A DNA stretch of 63,111 nucleotides from a phage, in NCBI GenBank assembly GCA_033178465.1, contig GCA_033178465.1_4726.1; one strand, 5' to 3'. The notes under the pieces were generated by a model. The model made no database searches and was not told the DNA's origin. It was given only the letters and a program-made list of their open reading frames with translations. How positions within the stretch are numbered: position 1 is the first letter of the stretch; every line of letters starts with the position of its first letter. Made by a program: the position numbers and the translations under genes. Positions 1 through 63,111 of this stretch are shown here, piece by piece.

Positions 1-48
1 GGTATGAATTAGGTTTCTTTCCTATCAACGATCATCTATGAGGTCAGC

Positions 49-879
49 ATGTATCCTGAAGCATCATGGCAGGAGGAAGTGTTATCTAAAATAAACGCCT
101 ATCTCCAGCATCCGTTGTCCCTGTCGGACGTTACGTTAACGCCAGCCTGGTATGGTGCGTCGGGTCGGTTACGCCTATCTATAGCCCCCGCACCACAATC
201 GGTTTACTACGTCGAAGACCCCGTACAGGTTTATCTTCAACGTCGAGACATTAATAAGCTCTTTATCAAACACCAACCTTTTATTGTCGTTGCTGATAAG
301 ACGACGATAGCAGACTGCTTAACACAGCTGTTTAAGAAGTATGGGTTGAAGATCGATTTAACGATCTTTGATTCTTCAGCGTTAGCGTCACAGGTTAAAT
401 TTGAAAGCGGCGAGAAAACCATATCTGTTCCCGTTCGTTCTGACGCATCGGCATCGTGGTACGGTACGTTTCAATTCCTCGCACGAAAAGATGTAAGTAC
501 CGATATTAGCGAACTGTTTACGGTACGAGAACCGCTAACCTCGTATTATCCAGAAGATAGTAAACAAGGGGATTTCCACACATTCAGTACATACGGCATC
601 AAGCTAAATTTACCGCCGCAAGATGCGATACGTTCGATGTCGGTTGGAGATACTCCAGAAGGATACAACGCATTCCGTTTAGCCTCATCGCTGATTTCAA
701 TGAGTTATACCTTAGCTTGGGAACTCATCACAACAGCCAACGTCGTTTATAATGGAAAAGTTGCCGATGCGAACGATTTAGATGTTCCAATACTTCCGTC
801 GTTCGGAAGCTCTGTTCTGGTATTAAAACCTCATTCCGATAGCGACGTCAGCAGCAAACTTTATTTTAGTTACGATTAA
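49..879 (+). CDS. hypothetical protein; N-terminal ~150-aa module paralogous to 4696-5223 and to N-terminus of 11277-13889 (putative fibre adaptor/attachment module)
   Basis: 276-aa ORF, ATG with GAGG 7 nt upstream; N-terminal residues share conserved pattern (…RRDI.K.F…YG..….DF…) with two other proteins in window; immediately upstream (13 nt) of a 1198-aa protein. Confidence 0.6.
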   Translation: MYPEASWQEEVLSKINAYLQHPLSLSDVTLTPAWYGASGRLRLSIAPAPQSVYYVEDPVQVYLQRRDINKLFIKHQPFIVVADKTTIADCLTQLFKKYGLKIDLTIFDSSALASQVKFESGEKTISVPVRSDASASWYGTFQFLARKDVSTDISELFTVREPLTSYYPEDSKQGDFHTFSTYGIKLNLPPQDAIRSMSVGDTPEGYNAFRLASSLISMSYTLAWELITTANVVYNGKVADANDLDVPILPSFGSSVLVLKPHSDSDVSSKLYFSYD

Positions 880-892
880 GGTGGAGTAAATA

Positions 893-3800
893 ATGGCGAC
901 ATTCTTACCTGACGATAAGCAGGATCTGGTTGACCAACTCAATGTACTAAATAAAACAAATATCCCGGCTGATGGTATCGCAGTCACTGCTGTTGGCGAT
1001 AGTCAAAAACTTGACGGTGTTGGAAATTACACAGGGACGGTTACGGTTAATAAACCAAAACGGTCATTCGCGACACTGTTTCCGTTCGGTGCGATCATGA
1101 AAAAAGAAACCGGTAACGAGGATGTTACTGGCCGCGCTGCACTCGCGTTATTGAACGAGCAGTTCCATCTGACGATTGCAGAAAGTTATTTCACAGAAGA
1201 ATCTTTAAATGCAACATACCAGTTAGGGACATGGAACAGCATCTCCGCACAAATCGCTTTAGAACCAACCAAGGATAACCCTTACTGGAAAGATACGTTG
1301 TTCATCTCAATGTATCGGTCAACGCTAGGTGCTTTGGAGGCATCTGATGCAAGCGCATCATCGAGTATTTATGTTGATTTAGGATCGGCTAGAAAAGCGT
1401 TCAATCTGAATCGTACCGGCGTATACAAGTTACCTTTACCAACAACGTCCAGTAGTGTACCGGACCGTTATGAATGGTGTCAGTTATTAGAAATTACACC
1501 ATCGGTTGTTGGCGGGCAGATTGACTGGAGCAACTACTTAACGCTGGAGCCGTTAACGCCGACGTTCCCAGTGATGGAAATCGATACAACCTATTACTTC
1601 CTGCTTTGGACATTTAACCGTAAAGATTGGTACGTGAAACAAATCACCGCATCGGAGCGTTATAACGATGTTGCTCAACTTATTGGTAAATGGGTGCTTA
1701 CAGCGTCGCCGGTTAATTTCGTTGGTTATGGTCATGCAAGATTCTTAACCCGAAACACAGGAACGTTTACCGATCCAGAAACCGATCATTACGTGTTAAA
1801 TGAAAGCGGGGTAATGGTAAACAACCGTCATTTCATTGCAGCAACACGACAAGAAGCGCAACCGGATGGTGACGCAACAACAGAAGGACAGTCGTTGTTA
1901 ATTCTGGGTGCGGGTATATTCAGTCATACAACGGATGACACCAAGCTTAAAGCGCATTATCTCACATTAGCAGAGGCATCGTTCGATGCGTATATAAAAG
2001 CGTTCTACGCAGGCCTTGAACCACCGGATACACCGACACGCTGGATCGCTAACTGGATCGTTAATGGTAAGCAACCGGTGTTGGCTCATTATCCTCTTGC
2101 AAAAGACGATTACCCAACACACGGGGGTTTCCATGACACAGCGGTTACATTCACCAGCGGTATCGGGAAAATAACACACGGTGCACCCACGTTCGGGGAA
2201 TACATGGATCTTGTTGTTCAGGTCTATGAGGGTAAACTCGGCTGGCAGAATTTGAACGCCGATGTGTTCAAAACCAATGATGAGGGGACGATTGACTGGG
2301 ATACAAAGGGTACAGTGTTCCCTATCGAGAAAGTTGCGTTACGCACAAAACGATACGTAAGTGCGGACGGGGACGATCTTGAAGCGTGTACTGACGATGA
2401 GGTAGGTACCATCGTACTCAAAGATAAATCCGTCAGCGGTTCTTATTTGGTTGCGTGGGCACCCCGCGTTCCTGTTGAATATGGCGGATACCTCATCAAA
2501 ACGAACGAGTGTCAGCATAACCGACCGATCCAGGTGCCGGTCACCAGAGACTACATGGGAAACGCGTCAGACGCTGAACAGTGGTTTTGTGAAGCAGCCT
2601 ACACCTTATATCGTTTAACGCAGCAGGAGCGTTATCAGAAAGCGTACAAGGCATCTTTGTTTACGATTGAAGAATATACCCGTATTGACGCTAACGATAA
2701 GTTCTTCCGTCAAGTAAAAGGAACCGATCGTTACGACACCGACGGTATCGCTTACACGTATACCTATCCATCGAAAGCACCGTTCACAATCACACGCGAT
2801 ACTGATGGCTGGATCGTGATTCAAGCATCTTCAGCACAAATTTACCTTGAACAGCAGGCCATTCCGTTCCGCGTCAATCGTGATTCAATTCTTCGGGTAA
2901 CCTGCGGCGGTAAAGATACAGCAGGTGTTGCAATTCCGGTTGAGATCTCATTATCGCTTTCTTTGGACAAAACCGAAGCGAAAGCCAAAACGTACAAGCT
3001 GGTATTACCTTCCAGCGCTGAACCGAAAGGATGGGATTTCAAAATAGGCTCATTGATTCCTGCTGATGCGGTTGATGAAGCTTCAACGCCAACCGGTGAT
3101 GCTGTTACAGGTTCTGTGTTGATATCGGCTGATAAAGTCGGCTGGAAAGACGATGTCGCCATCACAACAGAATTCAGCGAAGCGGTGGAAGATTCCTGGG
3201 ATGGGTTGTTCTTAAAAGCGCAGCTTACTGCGGCAGGCGGGCAATTTGAATTCAACCCAACCGCAAAACAGATCGTAAGACAGGTCAGTTATTTCGCGTC
3301 GATTGACTACAACGTTCGTGTAGAAGATGCAAATGGTTGGCGATGGTGGTATATGCTACCGGCCACCACAGCAAGAAATACATTGACGCTTTCGGCGAAC
3401 GGATGGACGCTTTCAGGGTATCAACCGGGCCACGCTGATACTGACCCTAGACCTTCTGCACCTGTGTGGGGCGATGGCTCAACTGAAATTCTGTTCTTGC
3501 CTGACGACAGCGATATCGCTGAAGGGGTATTTAAGCTCTACGCCATCAACAATCCGCCGTCAACTTACACCACGGATGACGGATACACCATGTTGTTTAC
3601 GTTAAAAGCAATCTTTGAGGCAGAGGGCACATTGCGTGTTGGCGATTGCACGATTGTCAACCAACGTCTGGATCCATTGCCTTATACTCCGGGTATTATT
3701 CCGTTCTCTAACAACTATATCCCTAACGCACCGACGTTCGACAGCTGGCGTGGTCAGCCTTATCCCGGCTACCAACATCCATGGGTCTTCCTGGATATGG

Positions 3801-4489
3801 ACGTATCGGCTGAACGACGTGACCTCATGATTCAGAATGTTGTGAATTTCTGGTATGACTCACAGCAGTGGTACTATCAGAAATTCGGTGTTTTAGGGCC
3901 AGGGGCAAGTGCGTACGTGTGGGATCGTTGGGATGCGCCAAGCGGATCAAAAGTTAATGATTTTACGATGTACCACTTCGGCGATCAGACAGCATGGTCT
4001 GGTTATCAGCCGAGGGCTTTCTTTTCAGCGGTGCGGCTTTATGCTGGACTGCTTGATCGTGGTTTAGCCGTCCCTGAGAAATTAACCACTTACATCAGTC
4101 ATTGGATTGATTTCTTGTTTACGTATCAACAGGAAAACGCTTATCAATCTCCTACGGATTTTCCGATGGATAAACCCCCTGCTTTTATCCCTAATGACTT
4201 TACTGGTCACATGGCAGGATTATGGTTGGCTGGTGCGTCGTTAGCAATGTTGTACGGACATCCCAACGATAAAGGCTATTCTGTTGCTGTTAATGCGTAT
4301 AACGAAATCGTTGAGAACTACATCAACCGCTACACCGTTGATGACGTAATGAACGGTGGGTGGAGTCCCGCACCAGATAGCGCTAATCTCGGCAGAGACG
4401 GAATGTATTTTGGTTTCTGGAGTGGGGAGATCCTCCGAGGATTAGGCTATTATATTGCCTTATTACGTGATGTAAAACCGACAATTTAA
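893..4489 (+). CDS. large putative virion protein, possibly tail fibre/tailspike-like receptor-binding protein (function inferred from context only)
   Basis: 1198-aa ORF, ATG with AAGGTGGAG RBS; follows the small adaptor-module gene exactly as fibre gene 5230-9198 follows 4696-5223; Trp/Tyr/Gly-rich; no motif recognised. Confidence 0.5.
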   Translation: MATFLPDDKQDLVDQLNVLNKTNIPADGIAVTAVGDSQKLDGVGNYTGTVTVNKPKRSFATLFPFGAIMKKETGNEDVTGRAALALLNEQFHLTIAESYFTEESLNATYQLGTWNSISAQIALEPTKDNPYWKDTLFISMYRSTLGALEASDASASSSIYVDLGSARKAFNLNRTGVYKLPLPTTSSSVPDRYEWCQLLEITPSVVGGQIDWSNYLTLEPLTPTFPVMEIDTTYYFLLWTFNRKDWYVKQITASERYNDVAQLIGKWVLTASPVNFVGYGHARFLTRNTGTFTDPETDHYVLNESGVMVNNRHFIAATRQEAQPDGDATTEGQSLLILGAGIFSHTTDDTKLKAHYLTLAEASFDAYIKAFYAGLEPPDTPTRWIANWIVNGKQPVLAHYPLAKDDYPTHGGFHDTAVTFTSGIGKITHGAPTFGEYMDLVVQVYEGKLGWQNLNADVFKTNDEGTIDWDTKGTVFPIEKVALRTKRYVSADGDDLEACTDDEVGTIVLKDKSVSGSYLVAWAPRVPVEYGGYLIKTNECQHNRPIQVPVTRDYMGNASDAEQWFCEAAYTLYRLTQQERYQKAYKASLFTIEEYTRIDANDKFFRQVKGTDRYDTDGIAYTYTYPSKAPFTITRDTDGWIVIQASSAQIYLEQQAIPFRVNRDSILRVTCGGKDTAGVAIPVEISLSLSLDKTEAKAKTYKLVLPSSAEPKGWDFKIGSLIPADAVDEASTPTGDAVTGSVLISADKVGWKDDVAITTEFSEAVEDSWDGLFLKAQLTAAGGQFEFNPTAKQIVRQVSYFASIDYNVRVEDANGWRWWYMLPATTARNTLTLSANGWTLSGYQPGHADTDPRPSAPVWGDGSTEILFLPDDSDIAEGVFKLYAINNPPSTYTTDDGYTMLFTLKAIFEAEGTLRVGDCTIVNQRLDPLPYTPGIIPFSNNYIPNAPTFDSWRGQPYPGYQHPWVFLDMDVSAERRDLMIQNVVNFWYDSQQWYYQKFGVLGPGASAYVWDRWDAPSGSKVNDFTMYHFGDQTAWSGYQPRAFFSAVRLYAGLLDRGLAVPEKLTTYISHWIDFLFTYQQENAYQSPTDFPMDKPPAFIPNDFTGHMAGLWLAGASLAMLYGHPNDKGYSVAVNAYNEIVENYINRYTVDDVMNGGWSPAPDSANLGRDGMYFGFWSGEILRGLGYYIALLRDVKPTI

Positions 4490-4695: not shown

Positions 4696-5223
4696 ATGCG
4701 TTCACTTTACCCGCCATGGAAAGACGAACTGATTACGTTGATAAACCAACGTAACGGTAGCGTGTTCAGCAGCTCCGATCTTACATTAACCTTGGATGGG
4801 AGTTCTGGTGCTAACAGGGCAAAAGTGATCGTCACAGCAAATGAAGGAACAAGGTGGTGTGGTGAAAGTTTTATCACTTACACACGACGTGATATCGCGA
4901 AAGCGTTTCTAGGGATACCGATGAAAATCGTTTTGGAGTCGGTTGAAACAACAACTATAAGAGCGGTTATTCAAGCTATTTCAGATCAGTACGGATTCAT
5001 CTTTGAAACCGATGCTGATTTTGATTCAGCTATCCTTGCTACTGTCATTGATTTTCGTGACGACACATCCAAGAAGATCTCGATTCCCATCGCGAATACC
5101 TCCATGGTTTGGCGTGGGCAATTGGATCTTATCGTGACAAACCAGCGTGATACATCACCAGCGTATCTTTGCGCCGGTGCGGCAACTGTCATCGGTGATG
5201 TCATCACTATTTACCCGGGATAA
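4696..5223 (+). CDS. small protein consisting of the shared ~150-aa N-terminal module (putative tail-fibre adaptor/chaperone)
   Basis: 175-aa ORF; GGAGGAGGG RBS; paralogous to 49-879 and N-term of 11277-13889 (e.g. RRDIAKAFLGIPMKIV vs KRDLAKAFLGIPVKII); stop 6 nt before fibre gene start. Confidence 0.65.
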   Translation: MRSLYPPWKDELITLINQRNGSVFSSSDLTLTLDGSSGANRAKVIVTANEGTRWCGESFITYTRRDIAKAFLGIPMKIVLESVETTTIRAVIQAISDQYGFIFETDADFDSAILATVIDFRDDTSKKISIPIANTSMVWRGQLDLIVTNQRDTSPAYLCAGAATVIGDVITIYPG

Positions 5224-5229
5224 AACGCC

Positions 5230-8200
5230 ATGAGTACAACTTATAAAACGGTCATTACCGATAAAGGCGCTGAACGTATTGCCGCAGCGCTACTTCCTGA
5301 CGGTGAGAAACTAAGAATCACACATTTTGCTGTTGGTGACGGAAACGGCTCTACACCAACCCCGACCGCCAGCCAAACAGCGCTCGTACACGAAGTTTAT
5401 CGTGGGGGAGTTTCTAACATCCACATTGATGTTGACGACACAACTCGGATTGTTGTTGAAGGCATTATTCCCACCAGTCAAGGTGGGTTCTGGGTGCGTG
5501 AGATCGGTCTGTACGACGATCAGGGTGAACTTGTCGTTGTCGGCAATGCGCCAGAAGGGTACAAACCACTGCCTTCCGAAGGGGCAGGACGTGTGTTAAA
5601 TTGTCAGGTATTTGTTGTCGTAAGCAATACCGATGCGATCGAATTGAAGGTTGTTAGTGACGCATTCTTACCAGACGCGACCACCGAGAAACGGGGATTA
5701 ACGATCCTTAGCAGCGAAACAAATAGTGACGACGAAACCAAAGCCGCAACATCAAAAGCAGTTAAAGCTGTGATGGATGTTGCGAAAGGAAAGTACACGG
5801 CTGTGGACGCTAGTACCACTCGTAAAGGGTTGGTTCAGTTAACCTCGGCGACGAACAGTGATAGTGAAGTACTCGCACTATCCGCGAAAGCCGGGAAAGT
5901 CCTAGCAACACAAATTAGCGCTAAAGCGGATCTTTCTAGTCCGGCATTTACCGATAAGCCGACAACACCAACCGCAGCCGAAGGCGATAAAAGTCAGCAG
6001 ATTGCGAATACCGAATTTGTGATGCGTGCTATCGCATCGCTGGTCGACTCGTCTCCAGAAGCGCTAAATACGCTTAATGAGCTGGCTCAAGCTTTAGGGA
6101 ACGATCCTAATTTCGCAACGACAGTAACCAATGCGTTGGCAGGTAAACAGCCGTTGAACGCGTTGCTGACAGCGTGGTCTAACCTAACAACAGATGCGAA
6201 TAAACTCCCTTATTTTACTGGACGGAACCAAATCGGACTAACTAACGTAACGTCAATAGGTCTGAATCTGCTAAGCAAAGGAAGCGTTGATGCGGTCTTA
6301 CTGTATCTTGGATTGACAGAAACCATAAAGGCAGCTAAGACAGCATTGCAGGCTGGGAATAACGGTAGTGATATCGTAGATAAAACCGCGTTTGCTAAAA
6401 CGATCGGGTTATCGCCAGAGACGTACCTGAAATATAACGGCGATATGGCGATAGATGCGGACCTTAATACCTTCGGTCCAGTCGAAGCGTCTATGGGTAT
6501 TTGGTCGAAAGGCACATCTACAAACGCAACGTTTGCGAAGAACTTCCCGGAAGAAAACGCAGTCGGTTATTTAGAAGTTTTTAGAGCGGGTAACTACGGC
6601 GGAAGTCAACGTTTCACTGTACGTAACGGTAACATCTATACACGTCATCTTACTGCTTCATGGAATGGGACAAACGGTCCTTGGTCAGAATGGCGTAATG
6701 TTGCCGGTTCCGCCAGAACGTTGAACGAACAAAATAATCTGAATGACTTAGGCGGTGAACCCGCATTGGGTGTTTGGAGAAACAGTACAAGTACGTTAGC
6801 AACAGCTGCGCTGAATTATCCTGAGGAAGGTTCCTTTGCCCAGGGTGTATTAGAGGTCCTCAAAGGTGGTAACTACAGTTACACACAACGCTACACTACT
6901 CGTAGAGGTAATGTGTACGTTCGTTGTCTACAAGCCACGTGGGATGCTTCAAACCCGCAATGGGAGGAATGGCGCTGCGTCGGCTGTCAATCTGTCAGCG
7001 CATATTTCGAAGGCGATCTCGACACGTTAACTTCACCTAACCGTTATAGCATTACCGACAAAGCGACAAACGTTCCTTTAATCGACGGCACTAAAATTAT
7101 CGGTATCTTGGACGTCAGTCGTCGTTTTGATAACATTAGCATCGAACAAAAATTCACCTCGTTTGGTTCTGGTAGTAAAACCACAGGTCGCGTTTTCACT
7201 CGTGTATTCTCCGGCCAATCGAACGGTAAATGGAGTGACTGGCGAGAGGTTTTCACATCGTATTCACTTCCGTTGGTTTTGGGTATCGGTGGGGCCGCAG
7301 CTAAAGTCGATTCGTTGGACTGGCAGACCTACGACTTTATTCCCGGCCAGATGTTAACGACGCCTTTGAACACCATGCAGAACATTCCGTCCGATATGGA
7401 TTGGGGTGTGATCGACGGTAACCTAGTCAACATCCTTGTCGGGCCGTCTGATGACACCGGTACCGGTCGGAGTATGTTGGTTTGGCGTAGCACGGTGTCT
7501 ACCGCGAATTATCGGTTCTTTGCTGTTCGTATCGCTGGCACCGCCGGTAATCGTACGATTACGACGCGTCAGATGCCTGTGCTTAACGCTGCTCATACCT
7601 GGGCAGAAAAACAGACATTCAATAAAGGCTTAGCTGGTGATTTAACGGGTAATGCCACTACAGCAACCAAGCTACAAACCGCCCGTAAAATCGGCGGTGT
7701 CGCGTTCGATGGCACAGCTGATATCGCGTTACCTGGCGTCAATGCAGCTGGTAATCAGAATACAACCGGTAACGCAGCAACCGCCACGAAATTGAAAACC
7801 GCTGTTACGATCGGTGGTGTGAGTTTCGATGGTTCGGCCAGTATCAGTCTACCGGGTGTTAACGCAGCGGGAAATCAAAGCACCAGCGGAAACGCAGGAA
7901 GCGCAACCAAACTTCAGACCGCGAGAACCATCGGGGGTGTTTCTTTTGATGGTACTGCGAACATTGATTTACCAGGCGTAAATAAAGCAGGTACGCAAAG
8001 CACATCAGGGAACGCTGCAACAGCGACAAAACTCCAGACAGCCAGAAAGATCAACGGTGTTGCTTTTGATGGTACGAAAGATATCAGCTTCACGATTAGC
8101 GCGATCGCATCACGAGGTCGTGTAACCGCATTAGCGAATGCTGTTCAAGGTACCAGTACCGGTGTCCAGATGTACGAAGCGTACAACAACGGATACCCAA

Positions 8201-9198
8201 CAGCGTACGGTAACGTTATGCATCTTAAAGGGGCCAGTGCCAGCGGTGAAGGTGAGATCCTTATTGGATGGTCTGGGACATCAGGGGCGCACGCGCCAGC
8301 GTATCTTCGTTCTCGTCGGGATGCGGCGGATGCGAACTGGTCGGAATGGGCACAGATCTACACCTCGAAAGATAGTATCCCTGGTGTGAACGCAACCGGA
8401 AACCAGAACACGACGGGTAACGCCGCTTCAGCGACAAGGCTTCAAACGGCAAGAACGATAGGTGGGGTATCATTCAACGGTACAGCAAACATCAACTTAC
8501 CTGGTGTTAATACCACAGGTAACCAAGATACCACAGGAAATGCGGCGACAGCGACCAAATTAAAGACAGCCCGGACAATAGGCGGAGTGTCTTTTGACGG
8601 CAGCGCTAATATTAACCTACCTGGCGTTAACACCGCTGGTAATCAGAATACTTCAGGAAACGCTGCAACAGCAACGAAGTTGCGGACTGCGCGTACAATC
8701 AACGGGAAAGCGTTCGATGGTTCGGCGAATATCACGTTAACTGCGGCGGATTTGTCTACGTATACGAAGTCAGAAATCGATACGAAATTAGGATATAAAG
8801 CATCCAGTAGTGATATCCCTAACATGGCGATTAAAACATCCACGCTTTCATCTGGTAGTATGAACATGTCGTTTAGTGACTTCATCAACTATCTGAAAGG
8901 TGAAGGCGCATTCAGGAAACGTTATTGGATCGGATTTGGTGATATGATGGGCGCGAACGCTGGGAGTACAGGAACAATCACCGGGTTCGGTGCTCTCCAG
9001 CTCGCTGGTACGATCATTGAAGTATTCAACTTCCCTAACGGGATGGATTATACGATACGTATTACTACGCAACATAAAGCAGATTATAGCGGTTTGACAA
9101 ATATGATTGTAGTGTATCATTATCGGAGCGCATTGTCGCCTGCCGGTCAATGGTTGAAGTTCGCTGGTGCGACAGGAGCGACAAACGAAGGGTATTAA
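5230..9198 (+). CDS. tail fibre protein (lambda Stf / P2 gpH-type N-terminal domain plus tandem fibre repeats)
   Basis: 1322-aa ORF; N-terminus (…ITHFAVGDGNG…ASQTALVHEVYRG…VEGIIP…GGFWVREIGLYDDQGELVVVGN.PE.YKP) matches the conserved N-terminal domain of P2 gpH/lambda Stf-like fibres from memory; two blocks of ~40-aa repeats (GNxxTATKLxTARxIGGVxFDGxAxIxLPGVN). Confidence 0.85.
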   Translation: MSTTYKTVITDKGAERIAAALLPDGEKLRITHFAVGDGNGSTPTPTASQTALVHEVYRGGVSNIHIDVDDTTRIVVEGIIPTSQGGFWVREIGLYDDQGELVVVGNAPEGYKPLPSEGAGRVLNCQVFVVVSNTDAIELKVVSDAFLPDATTEKRGLTILSSETNSDDETKAATSKAVKAVMDVAKGKYTAVDASTTRKGLVQLTSATNSDSEVLALSAKAGKVLATQISAKADLSSPAFTDKPTTPTAAEGDKSQQIANTEFVMRAIASLVDSSPEALNTLNELAQALGNDPNFATTVTNALAGKQPLNALLTAWSNLTTDANKLPYFTGRNQIGLTNVTSIGLNLLSKGSVDAVLLYLGLTETIKAAKTALQAGNNGSDIVDKTAFAKTIGLSPETYLKYNGDMAIDADLNTFGPVEASMGIWSKGTSTNATFAKNFPEENAVGYLEVFRAGNYGGSQRFTVRNGNIYTRHLTASWNGTNGPWSEWRNVAGSARTLNEQNNLNDLGGEPALGVWRNSTSTLATAALNYPEEGSFAQGVLEVLKGGNYSYTQRYTTRRGNVYVRCLQATWDASNPQWEEWRCVGCQSVSAYFEGDLDTLTSPNRYSITDKATNVPLIDGTKIIGILDVSRRFDNISIEQKFTSFGSGSKTTGRVFTRVFSGQSNGKWSDWREVFTSYSLPLVLGIGGAAAKVDSLDWQTYDFIPGQMLTTPLNTMQNIPSDMDWGVIDGNLVNILVGPSDDTGTGRSMLVWRSTVSTANYRFFAVRIAGTAGNRTITTRQMPVLNAAHTWAEKQTFNKGLAGDLTGNATTATKLQTARKIGGVAFDGTADIALPGVNAAGNQNTTGNAATATKLKTAVTIGGVSFDGSASISLPGVNAAGNQSTSGNAGSATKLQTARTIGGVSFDGTANIDLPGVNKAGTQSTSGNAATATKLQTARKINGVAFDGTKDISFTISAIASRGRVTALANAVQGTSTGVQMYEAYNNGYPTAYGNVMHLKGASASGEGEILIGWSGTSGAHAPAYLRSRRDAADANWSEWAQIYTSKDSIPGVNATGNQNTTGNAASATRLQTARTIGGVSFNGTANINLPGVNTTGNQDTTGNAATATKLKTARTIGGVSFDGSANINLPGVNTAGNQNTSGNAATATKLRTARTINGKAFDGSANITLTAADLSTYTKSEIDTKLGYKASSSDIPNMAIKTSTLSSGSMNMSFSDFINYLKGEGAFRKRYWIGFGDMMGANAGSTGTITGFGALQLAGTIIEVFNFPNGMDYTIRITTQHKADYSGLTNMIVVYHYRSALSPAGQWLKFAGATGATNEGY
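7648..8100 (+). repeat. tandem ~120-bp (40-aa) tail-fibre repeats, ~4 copies, inside fibre gene
   Basis: Protein repeats GNATTATKLQTARKIGGVAFDGTADIALPGVNAAGNQNTT / GNAATATKLKTAVTIGGVSFDGSASISLPGVNAAGNQSTS / … read directly from translation. Confidence 0.8.
8416..8740 (+). repeat. second block of ~3 tandem 40-aa tail-fibre repeats inside fibre gene
   Basis: GNAASATRLQTARTIGGVSFNGTANINLPGVNTTGNQDTT / GNAATATKLKTARTIGGVSFDGSANINLPGVNTAGNQNTS / GNAATATKLRTARTINGKAFDGSANITL. Confidence 0.8.
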
Positions 9199-9252
9199 TA
9201 TCTTGCGATTATCCTTATGGAAGTCACTTCCGTTAACACACAAGGAAATCTA

Positions 9253-9759
9253 ATGATGAAAAAACTCTGCGCGATCGTTCTTGGTATGTTGATGGTGCTT
9301 TCTCTGGGTGGGTGCGCTACGCTGGAAGGCTTACCGAACCTGGATAAAGACCTGACACAACTGGTGGGGTTAAAACCTGTTGAGAAGAACAGCAATCTCG
9401 CTGTGTATTCCTGCTGGGGAGCAACCCAGGAATTCGAACATTGGAAACCGAAGTTTTCAACCACGGAAATCTGGAACGATAAGGTTCTGGTTGTGGATGA
9501 AGGTAGTCAGTTTACCGTCGACTCTCCGGTAACCGTTTTCGAGTCCACACAGTTGTACACCACGGTGAAAGACTACGTTGATCTGGGGTTCAATACCGCA
9601 ACCAGCGAACGCTTCTACCGTATGAATAAACCAACCCTGTCTTACGCAAGTTCAACCCTGAACTCGAACGGTGATGGTGTTGGTATGGTCTTCTTCAATT
9701 GTTCTACCGATCGTGCGCTGATCGCCGACCCGGATTCCGTTGAGGTTATCAGTAAGTAA
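9253..9759 (+). CDS. putative lipoprotein (signal peptide with lipobox LGGC); candidate receptor-masking/superinfection-exclusion protein
   Basis: ATG at 9253 with AAGGA RBS; N-terminus MMKKLCAIVLGMLMVLSLGGC = basic n-region, hydrophobic core, Cys after LGG; located directly downstream of tail fibre gene. Confidence 0.65.
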   Translation: MMKKLCAIVLGMLMVLSLGGCATLEGLPNLDKDLTQLVGLKPVEKNSNLAVYSCWGATQEFEHWKPKFSTTEIWNDKVLVVDEGSQFTVDSPVTVFESTQLYTTVKDYVDLGFNTATSERFYRMNKPTLSYASSTLNSNGDGVGMVFFNCSTDRALIADPDSVEVISK

Positions 9760-9852: not shown

Positions 9853-10509
9853 ATGGCAATAGCGCGAACTATAGGGTTCACGTCTAGAAGGCACGCTGAC
9901 GGCAAATTAGGGTGGCGTGATCCCGGCTGGAGAGTGGCCTATAATAACAGCATTGTCGCCCATCTTTTTGACTTGCGTTCTTTTGCGCGAGAAGTCGTCG
10001 CTAGACACCCAAACGCGTACTTAGAATATGTCTCTGGGCATGGCGATGCTGAAGAAATTCAACACGGACAATGGAATAACGGGGTATACGTACCAAATAT
10101 ACCTCTCCAAGGATGGAGTGGCGATGTCGCCGCGTACGACTATAAACTATTCTGGAACGCGTCAGCTAACGGCTCAATGGGTAATATTGACTGTGATAGC
10201 CGTAAGCATACATGGAAACCATGGTCGGCGGGTAATCTCTCGGCACCTATTAGAATGTCCGACTTACAATCACATCCGTTCTTTGTTATTATTGAATTTA
10301 AGTATCGATCAACAACGCACTACGTTAAGCTTGGTTCGTTCCAGATAGAATCGTTCAATATATACGAAATGGTACCAGGTTTTCCGGGATGGGTAGGTAA
10401 CGTGATGAGTCAAAACGGTAGGGCAGTGCCTGGCTGGGCTTCGCAGCTTGTTTCAGGGAACTGGTTGACGTCGTTTGTTGGTGGTAAGCGATATCTAAAT
10501 TCAATTTAA
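9853..10509 (+). CDS. hypothetical protein, paralogue of 10612-11253 (putative fibre accessory protein)
   Basis: 218-aa ORF; C-terminal 45 aa nearly identical to neighbour (PGFPGWVGNVMSQNGRAVPGWASQLVSGNWLTSFVGGKRY) while N-termini diverge. Confidence 0.7.
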   Translation: MAIARTIGFTSRRHADGKLGWRDPGWRVAYNNSIVAHLFDLRSFAREVVARHPNAYLEYVSGHGDAEEIQHGQWNNGVYVPNIPLQGWSGDVAAYDYKLFWNASANGSMGNIDCDSRKHTWKPWSAGNLSAPIRMSDLQSHPFFVIIEFKYRSTTHYVKLGSFQIESFNIYEMVPGFPGWVGNVMSQNGRAVPGWASQLVSGNWLTSFVGGKRYLNSI

Positions 10510-10611: not shown

Positions 10612-11253
10612 ATGGCTATAAGCACAGATAAAACACCGAATAGCGGCGCACGCTTACAAGATGGTAACGCATGGCACGATAACACCGACGCTTACTACAA
10701 CACCATGATCTGCTGGACGTTCGACGTTCGTGATATTGCGACACAAGTCCAGAACAATTATCCTGGTACCAAATACCTGGAATCGATAAACGGATATGTG
10801 AACGCAAAAGAAAAGAAACACGGACAAGGTACCAACCCTGTTATCATTCCGAATATTCCACCACAGCAATTTACCTCACTTAAGAACATGAGTCCGTCGC
10901 TATGGTGGAACGCGGGCGGACGCGGTAGCAACGGTAACGTTAACTGTGACTCGCGCAGTCATACCTGGCAGCCGTGGAACGCGAATGCGAACTGGTCAGC
11001 CGTCCCTGTGACCGAATTGTTATCGTCTCCTTTACCCGTTGCGTTTGTCTTTAAAGCGGTTTCTGGTAAACATAACGTTGCGGTATGGAACTGTCATCTC
11101 TACAATTTAACTTTCTATTACATCCGTCCCGGATTCCCTGGTTGGTGTGGTAACATCATGAGCCAGAATGGTAGAGCCGTTCCAGGCTGGGTATCACAAC
11201 TCGTCAGCGGGAACTGGTTAACTTCCTTCGTGGGCGGTAAGCAGTACATCTAA
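10612..11253 (+). CDS. hypothetical protein, paralogue of 9853-10509 (putative fibre accessory protein)
   Basis: 213-aa ORF; C-terminus PGFPGWCGNIMSQNGRAVPGWVSQLVSGNWLTSFVGGKQY; shared central motif N.DCDSR.HTW.PW. Confidence 0.7.
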   Translation: MAISTDKTPNSGARLQDGNAWHDNTDAYYNTMICWTFDVRDIATQVQNNYPGTKYLESINGYVNAKEKKHGQGTNPVIIPNIPPQQFTSLKNMSPSLWWNAGGRGSNGNVNCDSRSHTWQPWNANANWSAVPVTELLSSPLPVAFVFKAVSGKHNVAVWNCHLYNLTFYYIRPGFPGWCGNIMSQNGRAVPGWVSQLVSGNWLTSFVGGKQYI

Positions 11254-48499: not shown

Positions 48500-48508
48500 C
48501 CACTATAT

Positions 48509-54886: not shown

Positions 54887-56444
54887 ACTTGATCGAAAAA
54901 TCAATGACGTATACGCGACGGTAACACGTCCGGTTGCAATCGCGGTGTTACGGCAGATCAGCGAGCTTTGCGGGTGGGATTATAATCGGGAGAACATTCT
55001 TTTTCGAGGGGAAGCGCTTCACGCTAAAATGAGCGCTGCGAACGAGCAACCACCGCAAGTTGTTGATCAGGATGTAAAGGGGCCTGCTGACGGGTTTATC
55101 CAAATTGAGCTTAATATTGTCCCCGAAGAACAGGCCTCTATGTACGATACTGTTTACAAACGAAACAGTCTTCCCGTATTTGAAGACCGTAACCTTGGCG
55201 TATCGTTAGTACCTGTTTACAGTACGATGGTTGCAACCATGCAGATCACCAAACGGTTCGAAGATCAGGTCACTGCCGAACGTTGGTGGTACGACATGAA
55301 ACGTTTGCTGACAAGTCAGCATGTCGCCGCCTTCCTTAGCGCCGAATACAGCTATGCGATCCCAACACAGTTTCTCATGTTGTTAAAAGTTATCCACACA
55401 CACCGAGAAGCAATAGCGGGTTACGGGGATAAGTTCAGCGAATACCTTAGGGATGGGTTCGACAACCGTGCAACCACCATGACGACAGTTGCTGGTGACG
55501 GTAAGAGCGTTAAATTGGTTATCAGGGAAATGCAAGAAGAGATCTCTGGTCAATTTGATTTCACCGACGCTCCGAAGCCAGAGAAGAATGAGAACAGTTC
55601 TTCGTACAACGCAACCTTCTCTTACCGTTACACGTACGACACGCCAACACATATCGTAGCACGGTATCCTGTTCAAGTACACCAACAGATACTCCCCGAA
55701 GAGTACCTTTACAAACCGAGCCTTTCGGTGCGTGATAAATCCCGTGCGCGTCGTGGTGGTATGGTGGTGCAGTATCAGGACATTCTTCGTGATTCGTTCT
55801 TGCCCGAGCAGGGTGCGTCGATTCAAGCGTATCGGTATCCTGATCTGGATGAATGGCTACCGCCATCAAGTGTGGAAACCGAACTTCCATCAAGCACGCT
55901 TTTCACCGCGCTGCTTGCCATCGATCCTGAACAACCTAACCTGTTGGTGACGTTGGACTCGTTAGCCGAAGAAGGTGAATTCCATCCCGATCTTGTTCGG
56001 TGGTTCCGTGAGTACCCAGAATGGTCAAAATGTCATTACCAATCTCCTTTTTTCCTTGAGGTTTGGAAGGGCAAATACCGCTACGCAAGAGACGCGTGGA
56101 CATTAACCGACGTCGGTGATCTTGAAGCGAAAGATCCATTAGACCTACGGAGTGATTACCACGTCCGTCTGGCGATACTGTTAGATTTAAGTCAGTTACA
56201 GGTTGAAACACTTGAAGCATTGTGTTGTTATCCCAATCTGGTGGATGAGCTGTTTGCAGTATTAGGTCTAGATAAAAAGTACTGGCCTAAGAAGAACATT
56301 CGGGGATGCTATACGCTAATCGGGCTTATCGAAGCCATCAAACGTATCCCAACAACCGCTTCATGGTTCAAACATCGTAGTTTATTTGTACCGAGAATTC
56401 TTGTCGGTACCATCGTAGGAGTGAAACGCTATGGCGCTCGCTAA
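54879..56444 (+). CDS. hypothetical protein (521 aa)
   Basis: ATG at 54879 with GAGGA RBS, overlapping stop of previous gene (track start 54852 is GTG). Confidence 0.7.
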   Translation: MPKLDRKINDVYATVTRPVAIAVLRQISELCGWDYNRENILFRGEALHAKMSAANEQPPQVVDQDVKGPADGFIQIELNIVPEEQASMYDTVYKRNSLPVFEDRNLGVSLVPVYSTMVATMQITKRFEDQVTAERWWYDMKRLLTSQHVAAFLSAEYSYAIPTQFLMLLKVIHTHREAIAGYGDKFSEYLRDGFDNRATTMTTVAGDGKSVKLVIREMQEEISGQFDFTDAPKPEKNENSSSYNATFSYRYTYDTPTHIVARYPVQVHQQILPEEYLYKPSLSVRDKSRARRGGMVVQYQDILRDSFLPEQGASIQAYRYPDLDEWLPPSSVETELPSSTLFTALLAIDPEQPNLLVTLDSLAEEGEFHPDLVRWFREYPEWSKCHYQSPFFLEVWKGKYRYARDAWTLTDVGDLEAKDPLDLRSDYHVRLAILLDLSQLQVETLEALCCYPNLVDELFAVLGLDKKYWPKKNIRGCYTLIGLIEAIKRIPTTASWFKHRSLFVPRILVGTIVGVKRYGAR

Positions 56445-57747
56445 GAAGCCCGCGAAACCCATCATCAACCCCCAACAACCCGCGAAGGCTCGCGACGATG
56501 TTTATCGTTCTGCGGTGGTGGATGAGCAATACAATAGTCAAATCGGGTTAGTGAATTACGCATCCGGTTATTCCGTAGAATGTGATTATTACGAACAGAT
56601 TCTCGGTCGCGATGATGAACAAAGCAGTTTTCAAGCTAACCGCGATATCGCTGAACAGCAGTACCGTCGCATCAGACATTACCCTATCAAGTTAATGTCG
56701 TCATTGACGCCGTCGTACGACAACGGTACCGCACGTTTTCAATCCGAGGGTACATGTATACTTCCGGCGGTATCGGTTCCTCTTTTAGGTAACATGCTGT
56801 TAATCTCCGGTCTCGATCATCGTATCGCGGTCTACACGATCACCCGAATCACGCCGAAGAACATCAGCTTAGCACCGGCTTACGAATGTGATATTTCCTT
56901 CCAACGTATTCTTGACGAAAAACAGCTTATCGAACTGGAAGCGAAAATCGTTGAGGATACGCTGTACGACCAAGACCAGTTAAAGCACGGAAAACATCCC
57001 GTAATGGCAACGGAGAAATACAATCGTAAGTACGATTATCTCCGTCGTGCACTGGGACTTTGTCACGCATATTACCATGAATTCTACAGCCGTGAATTAA
57101 ACACACTGCTTGTTCCTGGTCAAGATGCTGCAACCTACGATCCCTGGTGTGTTAACGCGTTTACGAAATTATGGTCGTCGCTTGAAGGAAAACCTTCATG
57201 GAACTTCGGACGTCTTAACGTAGACGACAGCCAGGAAGCGAATGCGATTTCTGTCTTTGAATGGGTCATGGACGGACGTCGGGAAGACGAGGCGCGGTTG
57301 ACGGTGAAATTCACACTGTTGTCAACAAAGCGTTTCTATCAGTACCCGGCTGCAGGTGGGATTCGTTTTAGTGGTGCGCGATTCTGTATGTGGCCTGCGA
57401 CCACGTCGCTTGGTGAAGACGTAGGTAAAGAGTTGGCTGTACCTGAAAACACACCACCGACAAATCCGTTGGTGACCAACCTTACATCGATGGAGTATGA
57501 CGGCGTTCCGTTGTTTCCATCGGTAGCGGACGATCCGTACTATGTTTTCACAGAGGCTTTCTATCGCAATCAAGCCCCAATGACGATTATTGAGAGTATG
57601 GTACGTGATATGGTCGATGAGGAAGCGATCAGCCATCCGGCACTGAAACAGATGGTTGACGCAATACCGTTGCTTTCTCCGCTAGATCGTTATTATTTCA
57701 CACCGTTCGTTATTATGCTGTTACGAGCAGGAGCTATTGAACCATGA
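56431..57747 (+). CDS. hypothetical protein (438 aa)
   Basis: ATG overlapping end of previous gene; ATGA overlap with next. Confidence 0.75.
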   Translation: MALAKKPAKPIINPQQPAKARDDVYRSAVVDEQYNSQIGLVNYASGYSVECDYYEQILGRDDEQSSFQANRDIAEQQYRRIRHYPIKLMSSLTPSYDNGTARFQSEGTCILPAVSVPLLGNMLLISGLDHRIAVYTITRITPKNISLAPAYECDISFQRILDEKQLIELEAKIVEDTLYDQDQLKHGKHPVMATEKYNRKYDYLRRALGLCHAYYHEFYSRELNTLLVPGQDAATYDPWCVNAFTKLWSSLEGKPSWNFGRLNVDDSQEANAISVFEWVMDGRREDEARLTVKFTLLSTKRFYQYPAAGGIRFSGARFCMWPATTSLGEDVGKELAVPENTPPTNPLVTNLTSMEYDGVPLFPSVADDPYYVFTEAFYRNQAPMTIIESMVRDMVDEEAISHPALKQMVDAIPLLSPLDRYYFTPFVIMLLRAGAIEP

Positions 57748-59783: not shown

Positions 59784-59837
59784 CAGTTTATTTCGCGACT
59801 ATATTACCTAGGTGATAACAACGGTTACTGTTATCAC
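59784..59837 (+). promoter_or_regulatory. conserved promoter-like element with downstream perfect inverted repeat GTGATAACA-N8-TGTTATCAC
   Basis: Second copy of 36-bp element; ~50 nt upstream of gene start 59871. Confidence 0.45.
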
Positions 59838-59870
59838 TGTAAATTTCTCTTAATAACCGAGGATACAAAC

Positions 59871-60644
59871 ATGACAGATATTTACATCAAACTGGCTGAT
59901 GACGCTCTTGACACATTACTGGCTGACTACCAGGTCCCAGAACAGACGGATAGTTTCAACGAAATTGTTGGGGCGGACGAAGGACGACATTGGATATTTT
60001 CTCCTGTGGAAAATCAATCGCGCCTTGGTTATCGTACCGTAGAAACATTTAAGGTCGCTCGAATCTTTCGCGCTGCAAAAGACAACACGTATTTCGTTTA
60101 CATAACTCAGGATCATTCCGATGAACCGGGCTACCTAATAAAACTCGATGCGTACGAAGCTGAACGTAAGCTCGAATACGCTCTTAACGAGATTCGTCCG
60201 CGAATCACAAAGAAACGTCGTAGCACCGGTATTCTCCGCGATCTACCAACGATTTATCTTGAAGTCGTTGAACTCCTTAGTCGTCGAGACACTTCGGAAC
60301 TTGTTGAAACGAACAAGCCGATCTATATTCATCCTGAATGCCATACCACGTACGATCGTTACTTAACGATAACAGGTGGTGTAGCAGCGCCATCACCAGT
60401 CGATATTGGCGAGTGGAGAATGATTCGTGAGATCTATCCTGACGGCCGTATCGTGACGTTTTGCGGTCGTACCTGTCTACCTTGCGATGCGTTGAATGAA
60501 AAAGTCCTTTCCGCTTATTTCTCAACGCTAACAAATTCCCGACAGTTCTATGCACTCGTCGTCGATTCCCAGAAAGAATCCATAACCGGTAACGCGGGAT
60601 CGTACTCCGGCTACCCCCACCATTTCTACGCCGATCCTGAGTAA
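59871..60644 (+). CDS. hypothetical protein, paralogue of 60730-61632 (Cys-containing conserved C-terminal domain)
   Basis: ATG at 59871 with AGGATA RBS (track ORF extends upstream through terminator and promoter-like element); C-terminal PIYIHPECHTTYDRYLTITGG…GEWRMIREIYPDGRIVTF matches neighbour. Confidence 0.7.
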   Translation: MTDIYIKLADDALDTLLADYQVPEQTDSFNEIVGADEGRHWIFSPVENQSRLGYRTVETFKVARIFRAAKDNTYFVYITQDHSDEPGYLIKLDAYEAERKLEYALNEIRPRITKKRRSTGILRDLPTIYLEVVELLSRRDTSELVETNKPIYIHPECHTTYDRYLTITGGVAAPSPVDIGEWRMIREIYPDGRIVTFCGRTCLPCDALNEKVLSAYFSTLTNSRQFYALVVDSQKESITGNAGSYSGYPHHFYADPE

Positions 60645-60729
60645 CCCAATATTGGTAGGGCCCTAAACAAAGGAGCCCTACCAGCATCACAAAACCGCAA
60701 TCATCCTTATCGTAATCAAGGAGCTCAAC

Positions 60730-61632
60730 ATGACCATCATTTATCGTGAATTATCCGCTGAACAACAGGCACATTTCCTCGCAATGAAACAACGTTTGGT
60801 CGACAAAACAGAACTTTTAAACAAGACGACCGATGAGTGCATCTGGGTGTTATCTGACGACGCCAACGACAGCCTATGCTCCGTATATATCGAATCAATC
60901 GTTTTCTTCAATGCACCACACAACGACAATAACGCAATCTTCTTTCTCAAAGATCCCAGCGTTCCTGGGGGGATCTCTTATCTTACAAAACCTCGCGAAC
61001 AAGCGTGCGCGAGTATCTTTGGATTACTCGAAAACCTGAGAATCAGGTATAACGGAATGCTGACAACCGTTCCTGATCTTTACGTCAAAGCAATCAAGAA
61101 GTACTATACGAAAGAACCTGTAATCGACTTAAAGAAAGAATTTGACAATTTCAAAATCGACACATCATCGCTCTCAATAGAGAAATGCGATGATATCGAT
61201 AGAACGGAAATGACCGGACCTATCTATCGTCATCCTTGTTGTTCTGAAGGGTTCGATACTTACCTTACCGTTACAACCGGATACGGCAATACGCCACCCA
61301 AAGACGTTCTTATCGGAACATGGTGCGTCGTTCGTGAAGTTTACCCAGACGGTACAATTATTACCGCTGATGGTGATAGACTCGCTCCAGCGATAAGTAC
61401 CTACGCCGACACCTTCAAAAACGAAGGAACGTTCGACCGTCAAAATTTGGTTTACTACGTACTCGCGGTTAATTCAAATCGTCCTTCTCAACAAGGTTTC
61501 TCATCAACAAGGCAAAATGCGCCATACGGCTATCATCCACACAACAACATGTTCAACCAATCTAACCCGTACTACGATGCAATTCAACGAGTACAACAAC
61601 AGGTCAGTCCTTGTAACTCGAAGACTAAGTAA
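60730..61632 (+). CDS. hypothetical protein, paralogue of 59871-60644
   Basis: 300-aa ORF, AAGGAG RBS; PIYRHPCCSEGFDTYLTVTTG…GTWCVVREVYPDGTIITA. Confidence 0.7.
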   Translation: MTIIYRELSAEQQAHFLAMKQRLVDKTELLNKTTDECIWVLSDDANDSLCSVYIESIVFFNAPHNDNNAIFFLKDPSVPGGISYLTKPREQACASIFGLLENLRIRYNGMLTTVPDLYVKAIKKYYTKEPVIDLKKEFDNFKIDTSSLSIEKCDDIDRTEMTGPIYRHPCCSEGFDTYLTVTTGYGNTPPKDVLIGTWCVVREVYPDGTIITADGDRLAPAISTYADTFKNEGTFDRQNLVYYVLAVNSNRPSQQGFSSTRQNAPYGYHPHNNMFNQSNPYYDAIQRVQQQVSPCNSKTK

Positions 61633-62347: not shown

Positions 62348-62749
62348 ATGTTTAATATTCTTAGTGTACCGCGTTCCCCTGTGAGTTCTTACTTCGGTAT
62401 TATGACCAGTAAAGAACACAATGTGGAATATACTGTTATCGCTAAAGACCCATCACCGATCAACGTAACGTTTGCTGAAGGTACTACCGAACTCGTTCCG
62501 TTAAACGGTGAATTCAGTAAACCTGTTAACGGCGTCTATGAACTCATCACTCGCGATCCGAATAACAACGCGACCTACCGTGTGGTGTGTGCGTTCAACA
62601 ATAACAAACTGGTTATCGTTGCGGATAGCCGAGGATTATCGTGGATGGCTGATGAAGGCGCACATCGTTACTACGAAGAGTGCTTACGAACCGCAGGCAT
62701 CTACGATCTGGTAATGGACGCCCGTGCTAAAAACGACCGTATGTTTTAA
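62348..62749 (+). CDS. hypothetical protein
   Basis: 133-aa ORF, AAGAGGA RBS. Confidence 0.65.
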   Translation: MFNILSVPRSPVSSYFGIMTSKEHNVEYTVIAKDPSPINVTFAEGTTELVPLNGEFSKPVNGVYELITRDPNNNATYRVVCAFNNNKLVIVADSRGLSWMADEGAHRYYEECLRTAGIYDLVMDARAKNDRMF

Positions 62750-62755
62750 ATTATC

Positions 62756-63082
62756 ATGATTACTCGAGAAATCATTTACGACGCTATTATCGAATGCCGT
62801 CATCGCGTCATGCGTGGAACGGTATATAACTACCACTTAAATAACATTATCAGTGAATGTATGGCGGTGATGACTAGCGCGCTGGGTAAACCTAGCGCTA
62901 TCGCACTTTATCCAAACATCACTGAACAGGAGCAAATCAATATCGAAAACCAACGTCGAGTGAATCGCCAATACGATGTAACAGCCATGCACGCATGGCT
63001 TATCGTTGCAGCGAAACTCAACACGCTTCTCACTGAGAACGGCTGGAAATTTTCACCTAATGAATTCATGACAATAAGTTAA
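62756..63082 (+). CDS. hypothetical protein
   Basis: 108-aa ORF; followed at window edge by start of conserved hairpin (63098-63111). Confidence 0.6.
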   Translation: MITREIIYDAIIECRHRVMRGTVYNYHLNNIISECMAVMTSALGKPSAIALYPNITEQEQINIENQRRVNRQYDVTAMHAWLIVAAKLNTLLTENGWKFSPNEFMTIS

Positions 63083-63111
63083 TCAAAGCGGTCATAACCC
63101 CTCCTCCTTCC

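Follow-up and report, generated by a model that had tools for sequence, protein, structure and literature searches.

The phage vB_EcoM_Goslar of Escherichia coli is a jumbo phage with a genome of 237,307 bp, a GC content of 46.5% and about 77 homologues in common with phiKZ (PMC6563267). It is an experimentally established nucleus-forming chimallivirus that builds a chimallin nucleus (PMC10299810), and a 2025 study enlarged its genus Goslarvirus, previously represented by 1 genome, to 38 species with 237 genomes recovered from bacterial isolate assemblies (PMC12768965). Among the chimalliviruses, PhiPA3 carries an HNH-bearing group I intron in gp210, a highly conserved essential gene for an RNA polymerase subunit, and for this intron a role in phage competition was demonstrated experimentally (Birkholz et al. 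2024, PMC11620839). Group I introns with genes for HNH/NUMOD-type endonucleases (I-HmuI, I-HmuII and I-BasI) are likewise located in the DNA polymerase genes of the phages SPO1, SP82 and Bastille (cited in PMC11620839). That a group I intron with an HNH gene occupies a conserved motif of a phage DNA polymerase gene is thus a classical phenomenon. Here we describe such an intron in a stretch of phage DNA of 63,111 nt (GenBank assembly GCA_033178465.1), which was analysed over its whole length and is called the window in the following. With high confidence the window is a segment of a Goslarvirus genome, i.e. of a phiKZ-like, nucleus-forming member of the Chimalliviridae with E. coli and related enterobacteria as hosts, in which the DNA polymerase gene is interrupted by an intron.

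The comparison of the window, divided into three thirds, with 50,697 phage records using megablast yielded Goslar as the sole match. The entire segment (1-63111) is collinear in reverse orientation with positions 48126-108089 of the Goslar genome (NC_048170.1), which comprise gp044 to gp093. According to blastn the aligned blocks have a nucleotide identity of 91.6-96.2% and cover about 92% of the window, and most of the encoded proteins are 97-100% identical to their Goslar counterparts. Gene order and gene content agree with gp044-gp093, and the GC content of about 47% (0.43-0.505 in intervals of 3 kb) is about equal to that of Goslar. This agrees with the earlier note, a first reading of the letters alone, which had proposed a jumbo phage segment of the phiKZ family from an enterobacterial relative or a mosaic and had also estimated the GC content at about 47%. 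The value of about 37% for phiKZ is the figure given in that note.

Membership in the genus Goslarvirus is based on a nucleotide similarity to Goslar of at least about 70% genome-wide and on collinearity. For this segment only, an identity of about 94% over an aligned fraction of about 92% results in a similarity of about 86%, and both the similarity and the collinearity are in the range of the genus. The window probably derives from a Goslarvirus species distinct from Goslar, because a similarity of about 86% is below the species threshold of 95%. The differences to Goslar described below comprise a swapped receptor-binding tip of the fibre accompanied by the loss of the tail fibre chaperone gene, hypervariable cassettes of small genes behind two early-promoter-like blocks, and a few in-frame insertions or deletions; differences like these are to be expected when species of the same genus are compared. 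The genome type as such is already known, and the window is a further member of a genus that is by now well populated. Related genomes are available as two IMG/VR uncultivated viral genomes (UViGs), one of 237,533 bp and one, a contig, of 182,865 bp, and as an ENA contig of 237,273 bp; in addition, an exact match to one window protein is located on Logan contigs of run SRR26620492, which are in the 20-50 kb bin (25.6 kb) and in the 50-200 kb bin.

The likeness to the phiKZ/201phi2-1 group, termed Group 1 of the jumbo phages by Iyer et al. 2021 (PMC7824862), is more distant. The window shares with these phages a multisubunit RNA polymerase (RNAP) subunit, the divergent N-terminal gene of a family-B DNA polymerase, the gp87-gp91 virion block, paralogues of the inner body proteins and an early promoter motif containing TATATTAC, but the protein identity is only about 35-40% and similarity at the nucleotide level is nil. 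It also differs from this group by the enterobacterial host, the GC content of about 47% and a tail fibre of the P2/P1/lambda type.

The top match was also the point at which the earlier note had placed its own refutation, by a hit to a non-jumbo phage or a prophage. Neither was found, because no non-jumbo phage appeared as top match and 22 kb of core genes yielded zero matches among 5,426 complete E. coli genomes. The same result bears on the idea that the window belongs not to a lytic jumbo phage but to a prophage or some other element residing in the chromosome or a plasmid of an enterobacterium. Fibre modules of the P2, P1 and lambda type, a fibre tip like that of phage Cyrano, whose own fibre resembles that of the phage-plasmid SSU5, and the match of one fibre segment to a 222-kb E. 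coli 'plasmid' record would fit such an element, as would the frequent recovery of Goslarviruses inside bacterial isolate assemblies (PMC12768965). The assembly-associated genomes are, however, read as non-integrated lytic phages in that same study, integrase, repressor and plasmid genes are missing among the Pfam and PHROG matches of the window, and the collinearity with the lytic phage Goslar extends throughout. We therefore regard a prophage or plasmid origin as very improbable and assign the window to a lytic Goslarvirus.

Within this segment the polymerase gene deviates from its current annotation. The earlier note had described a split-looking exonuclease fragment and a free-standing HNH endonuclease. 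An open reading frame (ORF) for the exonuclease half of a family-B polymerase is present, but the cause of its split appearance is an intron: because one gene is divided by a group I intron at motif A, the exonuclease ORF represents exon 1 and the HNH gene is not free-standing. All parts are encoded on the minus strand. Exon 1 comprises 499 codons (27581-29077; the annotated ORF 27578-29077 includes a stop codon), is homologous to phiKZ gp82 and 201phi2-1 gp144, and ends with ...RLFVAD and U as last base. It is followed by a group I intron of 1762 nt (25819-27580), which starts with UAA, the stop codon of the annotated 499-aa ORF, and has G as last base. Exon 2 consists of 84 codons plus stop (25564-25818), starts with LDISSSYPNG, which is motif A of the family-B polymerases, and is unannotated in Goslar. 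The intron itself is arranged as a 5' P1/P2 segment of 92 nt, the HNH ORF (26298-27488) and the P3-P9 ribozyme core (about 26297-25819). The ORF encodes a putatively I-HmuI-like HNH/NUMOD1 homing endonuclease candidate of 396 aa, which is homologous to Goslar gp069 and belongs to the phiKZ gp179 family, with about 29% identity to phiKZ gp179.

The sequence contains a probable ribozyme core, canonical U/G splice sites and an exact exon junction. Written with a slash at each splice site, the borders read ...GCGGAU/UAA...AAGAG/CUCGAU. In the predicted ligated exons ...GUUGCGGAU is joined to CUCGAUAUA..., which results in the junction-spanning peptide FVADLDISSSYPNGQ (...FVADLDISS...) and in a predicted spliced product of 583 aa. 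The ribozyme core was recognized by the full-length RF00028 model with 45.9 bits and an E value of 1.2e-9 (26362-25844, minus strand), and P3-P9 are well aligned including the phage-typical segment AAGAUAUGGUCUA. This match surfaced only in an E-value-mode Rfam scan of the local region; the Rfam scan of the whole window at the gathering threshold and the tRNA scan yielded nothing. Comparison of the core with that of Goslar, which has the same 1762-nt polymerase intron with 95% identity, revealed that none of the 151 predicted pairs is broken, with two compensatory and eight one-sided changes.

Further evidence for the junction was obtained from polymerase genes of other phages. Using tblastn, the fused junction peptide aligned continuously in 229 jumbo phage records within genes annotated as DNA polymerase, and in Goslar the part derived from exon 2 was found with 100% identity in unannotated DNA. 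In an alignment with 201phi2-1 gp144 and the homologues from RSF1, PA7 and pEa_SNUABM_54 the residues A-D/L-D...Y-P are invariant across the junction (slash). In these four phages the gene is uninterrupted and the homologues end at the same point as the predicted product, with which 201phi2-1 gp144 and its homologues share 33-39% identity. A natural intron-less allele (P0001) encodes 583 aa and covers 100% of the predicted product with 99% identity, and about 100 residues spanning the junction are identical. The corresponding DNA is located on a contig of 237,273 bp (ENA ERZ27286049, k141_31814; extracted locus L018, 3001-4752), where the gene is uninterrupted and reads ...RLFVADLDISSSYPNGQ...; the sequence of the empty site is ...CGTCTATTCGTTGCAGAC / CTTGACATTAGCAGTTCA....

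The annotation of Goslar offers a different explanation, in which a free-standing HNH endonuclease gene has truncated the polymerase, the protein ends after 499 aa and the sequence termed here exon 2 is a decaying remnant. In RefSeq and GenBank the region 79690-83203 of NC_048170.1 is indeed described in this way: gp068 with 499 aa is followed by gp069 as an ordinary gene and then by a gap of 820 nt, and both exon 2 with motif A and the ribozyme core are unannotated. The Rfam score of the intron, which is under the gathering score, would also fit this explanation. A decaying remnant is difficult to reconcile with the conservation of exon 2, whose peptide is 100% identical in five genomes despite up to 25 synonymous changes in the DNA and which holds the invariant catalytic motif A. 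Furthermore, the borders are canonical U/G splice sites whose junction exactly reproduces the intron-less allele, the substitutions in the conserved ribozyme core preserve its structure, and a second intron, this one above the Rfam threshold, is located at the same site in a relative (see below). The probability that the HNH gene is free-standing and the polymerase truncated is in our opinion very small, and we assume in the following that the gene is interrupted by a group I intron.

Some findings weigh against our assignment of the window as an intron-containing Goslarvirus segment. The score of the intron does not reach the Rfam gathering score of 50 bits. Tentative candidates for P1 (exon UUGCGGA paired with intron UCUGUAA) and for a P2 hairpin could be predicted, but in the proposed P1 the splice-site U faces G only if a bulge of one base is allowed. 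P1 is tentative because minimum free energy folding of a mini-intron with the ORF deleted did not reproduce a clean P1-P10 architecture. The Pfam HNH_3 domain of the endonuclease candidate is at 20.8 bits below the cut-off of 24.8. Moreover, the rest of the polymerase, i.e. fingers, palm motif C and thumb, should be encoded by a separate gene outside the window, as we infer from protein length and fold coverage. Finally, the genes for chimallin (ChmA), PhuZ and the major capsid protein lie outside these 63 kb, and for this reason nucleus formation and a genome of more than 200 kb can only be inferred for the phage of the window, from the near-identity to Goslar and the size of the related contigs.

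The nature of the 583-aa product was analysed by structure prediction. The AlphaFold2 model has a mean pLDDT of 85.6, with residues 7-455 predicted confidently and residues from about 460 to 583 poorly. A fold search with this model identified RB69 and T4 gp43, Pol epsilon and E. coli Pol II with E values of about 1e-12 over about 460 columns. Because these columns cover only a part of the targets, which have about 900 residues, the modelled product probably represents that half of a family-B polymerase which contains the N-terminal part and the 3'-5' exonuclease, and it stops soon after motif A. Sequence-based methods contributed little: a PDB search with the polymerase profile gave nothing useful, with spurious matches to uL30 as the only hits, and a Pfam search with five aligned homologues gave only a sub-threshold exonuclease match.

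The HNH protein encoded inside the intron contains a NUMOD1 domain (29.5 bits, cut-off 22.8) and the sequence ...NHKNG...N..H... is visible, whereas a PDB sequence search with this protein identified no relative. In a predicted P2-like hairpin (27541-27470) the Shine-Dalgarno sequence of the HNH ORF, GAGG (27497-27489), is covered by base pairing. If this prediction holds, the fold of the intron may restrain the translation of the endonuclease. Such a restraint is known for some of the intron ORFs of T4.

In close relatives of Goslar we identified three allelic states of the site: intron A with 1762 nt, intron B with 1536 nt and the empty site. Intron B, a different group I intron, is inserted at exactly the same position in the 183-kb contig IMGVR_UViG_3300045988_173921 (locus L009, 5498-7033), and with 70.4 bits its RF00028 match is above the gathering score. 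Its HNH protein of 377 aa is only 42% identical to that of the window, whereas exon 1 is 97% identical. Exon 2 of the window and of the empty allele differ at 18 positions in the first 75 nt and at 4 positions in the other 180 nt. A synonymous recoding that is concentrated at the junction would be expected from target divergence against the endonuclease or from co-conversion.

Insertions at motif A are also found in more distant relatives. About 18 of 120 more distant homologue clusters end at this motif, nine of them at ...AD and nine at ...ADLD. Two examples are uncultured phages with about 38-39% protein identity. ERZ23495331 (L020, 4965-7399) has the same junction GCGGAU/UAAC as well as an I-HmuI-like HNH ORF and a group I core, and its exon 2 is located about 2.4 kb downstream. 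In ERZ28616137 (L019, 4977-5398), a contig of 202 kb, the intron measures about 0.4 kb, contains no ORF and is inserted two codons later. This distribution suggests that motif A is a recurrent hotspot of intron insertion.

From these elements the following course of events is likely. The intron RNA would splice itself out and restore the reading frame ...RLFVAD/LDISSSYPN.... The HNH endonuclease would nick or cut the alleles of co-infecting relatives in which the site is empty or otherwise occupied, and the nicked or cut allele would then acquire a copy of the intron together with flanking exon sequence. The three allelic states, among them an empty but strongly recoded site, and the similar introns that about 15% of the distant relatives carry within the hotspot of two codons led us to consider, in analogy to PhiPA3, that the site could be a battleground of co-infecting Goslarviruses, with ongoing endonuclease-mediated interference competition and marker exclusion directed against the replicase. 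We regard this as a possible but rather unlikely interpretation. Competition was demonstrated by experiments for the gp210 intron of PhiPA3 (PMC11620839). The two introns differ in their location, which is an RNA polymerase subunit gene in PhiPA3 and the DNA polymerase gene at motif A in the window.

The situation in SPO1, SP82 and Bastille is comparable in another respect, as close relatives have introns at similar positions with highly divergent ORFs, like the 42% identical HNH proteins next to the 97% identical exon 1 described above. The polymerases of SPO1, SP82 and Bastille are family-A enzymes of Gram-positive phages; the intron of the window interrupts the divergent family-B polymerase of a Gram-negative jumbo phage and has its ORF between P2 and P3.

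The polymerase intron of Goslar appears to be undescribed in the searchable literature, the coverage of which is incomplete. The term 'intron' is absent from the description of Goslar (PMC6563267) and from the core genome paper (PMC10299810); the Goslar polymerase intron is unmentioned in the PhiPA3 intron paper (PMC11620839), a 2025 review and the CRISPRi-ART paper, and a full-text search found it nowhere else. For a widely used model of nucleus-forming E. coli phages the intron implies a correction of the annotation: the essential polymerase gene gp068 is truncated, gp069 is mislabelled and exon 2 was missed. Phenotypes would be misassigned in knock-down, transposon or proteomic studies based on the current annotation. 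The three alleles, i.e. intron A, intron B and empty site, represent a natural system to study intron homing and competition inside the phage nucleus, and with Goslar the battleground interpretation, if true, could be tested directly in E. coli. The question of the genome type is little changed by our analysis, as Goslar has been characterised since 2019.

A second locus that deviates from the conserved background is the tail fibre gene (5230-9198, plus strand), which encodes a mosaic protein of 1322 aa. The N-terminal domain of the lambda Stf/P2 gpH type and the fibre repeats recognized in the earlier note were confirmed with scores above the cut-offs (PF12571, residues 1-141, E value 1.7e-43; PF03406 repeats, E value 4.3e-21). 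Over its first 190 aa the protein shares about 45% identity with the gpH proteins of P2, 186 and Wphi, and the shaft resembles the shafts of Goslar and of P1 S. PF12571 at the N-terminus and the PF03406 repeats are common to the window fibre and to those of P2 gpH, P1 gpS, lambda Stf, Cyrano and SSU5, with the shaft repeats shared with P1 S. Compared with the gpH-type fibres, the fibre of the window is located in a jumbo phage baseplate context and is much longer (1322 aa versus an aligned gpH stretch of about 210 aa). The alignment with Goslar gp090 is interrupted by insertions and deletions and does not extend beyond about residue 1175. The distal tip (about residues 1176-1322; nt 8740-9198) shows 64% identity to the tip of phage Cyrano, but the last 150 residues or so are only about 30-35% identical to tips of the SSU5, P1, D6 and Mu type.

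The 45% identity of the N-terminal domain to P2 gpH and the similarity of repeats and tip to the P1 S, Cyrano and SSU5 fibres raise the question of an inter-family chimera, in which a jumbo phage backbone would have been combined with a large temperate block of the P2/lambda type. Foreign-looking sequence is, however, confined to the fibre gene. The flanking genes are of the Goslar or phiKZ type and 86-99% identical to Goslar, and further structural or regulatory genes of the P2/lambda type are absent from the 63 kb. In addition, the same fibre architecture is already present in Goslar, whose fibre is annotated as 'similar to gpS [P1], COG5301'. Exchange of modules within fibre genes is ordinary in tailed phages. 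A chimera of this kind is hardly credible, and the window is better described as a Goslarvirus segment: the fibre mosaicism mentioned in the earlier note is real, but it is limited to a single gene and was already visible in Goslar.

The end of the fibre gene differs between Goslar and the window also in its neighbourhood. Fibres of P2, P1 and Mu have an adjacent chaperone gene of the Tfa/U type. In Goslar such a gene adjoins the fibre gene as well (gp089; Caudo_TAP, Tfa chaperone), whereas none is located beside the fibre gene of the window, where the next ORF is a homologue of gp088. When the window was searched with gp089 using tblastn, no E value below 1 was obtained, and the best one (9.1) is that of a chance match. 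Within the genus this region (8740-9759) is dimorphic: the window and IMGVR_UViG_3300011560 have the Cyrano-like tip (99.3% identity) without Tfa, and the Tfa gene is kept in Goslar and in the 183-kb UViG_3300045988. This dimorphism of tip and chaperone is a lead for host-range differences within the genus.

A further observation concerns the middle part of the fibre gene (6399-7714), which is not alignable to Goslar. It is 87.7% identical to a fibre gene of 1541 aa in NZ_CP173450.1 (9001-10315 of the extracted locus L021), a circular E. coli 'plasmid' record of 221,873 bp that contains nearly exclusively hypothetical and tail genes. This record is probably another lytic jumbo phage of about 220 kb that was captured in an isolate assembly, and it may belong to the proposed 'Bapsvirus' group (PMC12768965).

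The other structural genes of the window include several of the phiKZ type. Six ORFs encode proteins of at least 900 aa (1198, 1322, 931, 1194, 997 and 1119 aa), in line with the several proteins of more than 900 aa counted before. The first is a large tail protein of 1198 aa (893-4489, plus strand), homologous to Goslar gp092 (phrog_2871 'tail protein', E value 3e-295), which is bordered by two DUF7941 (PF25613) paralogues at 49-879 and 4696-5223. The gene at 11277-13889 (plus strand), a homologue of Goslar gp086, encodes a protein of 870 aa with DUF7941, NCTSP_N and TIM-barrel 'non-contractile tail sheath protein' domains (PF23845, E value 3.4e-85; PF25613, 1.1e-44; PF23844, 1.1e-10). DUF7941 is common to all three loci, and the designation as 'non-contractile' sheath is unexpected for a phage with a contractile tail. 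A piece of the beta subunit of the multisubunit RNAP, homologous to Goslar gp078, is encoded at 18980-20281 on the plus strand (phrog_2962, E value 1.6e-105; 99.5% identity to Goslar), and the remaining RNAP subunits are located outside the window.

A virion block similar to gp87-gp91 of phiKZ extends from 37582 to 44394 (phrog_3248, E value 2e-286; PF23971, 2e-79; PF25618, 1e-46). It consists of a 997-aa protein and a tail-tube-like protein (40579-41817), both encoded on the minus strand, a gp89-like protein, a protein of 300 aa and the PhiKZ_gp91 vertex-binding protein (43864-44394, plus strand), to which the PF25618 match belongs. In Goslar the block is annotated as 'weakly similar to ORF087/088/089 phiKZ'. 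It is followed on the plus strand by five tandem paralogues of the phiKZ-type internal head (inner body) proteins (44459-51039). The phiKZ_IP domain (PF12699) was detected in three of them (E values 1.5e-21, 3.8e-5 and 1e-4), two acidic ones and the non-acidic protein encoded at 49891-51039; the other two are paralogues of the protein at 45860-47200 according to BLASTP. Four proteins of about 430-446 aa (44459-49949) have a net charge of -9 to -14 over the first 60 residues, which bears out the earlier description of paralogue families with acidic N-termini. Finally, a head-to-tail joining protein is encoded at 56431-57747 on the plus strand (PF24215, E value 1.9e-67; PF24214, 4.2e-48).

Two compact motifs, TATATTAC and TATG, had been proposed as promoter-like elements. 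The number of TATATTAC copies in the whole window is not significant (3 copies versus 1.5 expected, and 22 of 100 shuffled sequences reach 3), but two of the three copies, at 21638 and 59800, are intergenic (0.13 expected) and are part of a shared 35-nt block with the pattern CAGTTTATTTC-N4-CTATATTAC-N2-AGGTGATAA; this pattern was not reproduced by any of 100 shuffled sequences. Block 1, CAGTTTATTTCATGGCTATATTACTAAGGTGATAA (21622-21656, plus strand), is located 61 nt upstream of an ORF start at 21718, and block 2 (59784-59818, plus strand) 49 nt upstream of an ORF start at 59868. Both are early-promoter-like, as the 35-nt block fits the predicted early promoter consensus of 201phi2-1, OBP, N1M2 and phiKZ (PMC7058600, Table 2). 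The exact extended pattern has no copy in the Goslar loci because the orthologous sites read TACATTAC in place of TATATTAC. TATG was found 16 times in the 60-nt regions upstream of genes versus 7.2 expected, with no positional peak, and the motif is too short to evaluate. In the window, the analysis of enriched k-mers upstream of genes returned Shine-Dalgarno words only, and neither sigma-70 sites (20 versus 28.7 expected) nor terminators (21 versus 19.8 expected) were above the level of shuffled sequences.

The cassette behind block 1 (21718-25458) encodes small, mostly acidic and fast-diverging proteins with 29-99% identity to Goslar. Together with the genes behind block 2, these fast-evolving small-gene cassettes would fit early genes driven by the virion RNAP. 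At one position of the cassette (23439-23921) Goslar has a different small early protein. Several of the small early proteins belong to no Pfam or PHROG family, and the same is true for the gp087-like paralogues, of which the window contains an extra copy (9853-10509, plus strand). This copy is 47% identical to the paralogue at 10612-11253 and absent from Goslar and the two IMG/VR relatives. A further difference concerns gp064, which has 930 aa in Goslar, whereas its homologue in the window has 1194 aa with an in-frame insertion of 266 aa (35090-35887). The insertion has no resemblance within the window or to the corresponding loci of the compared relatives, and an IMG/VR scan with its N-terminal flank identified Goslar only. 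Behind block 2, two paralogous ORFs of 258 and 300 aa with about 30% identity to each other and no Pfam or PHROG family (59868-60644 and 60730-61632, plus strand) are located where Goslar contains gp047 with 63 aa. The content of this hypervariable locus (59784-61632) differs in all four genomes compared, and it may represent a hotspot for accessory genes.

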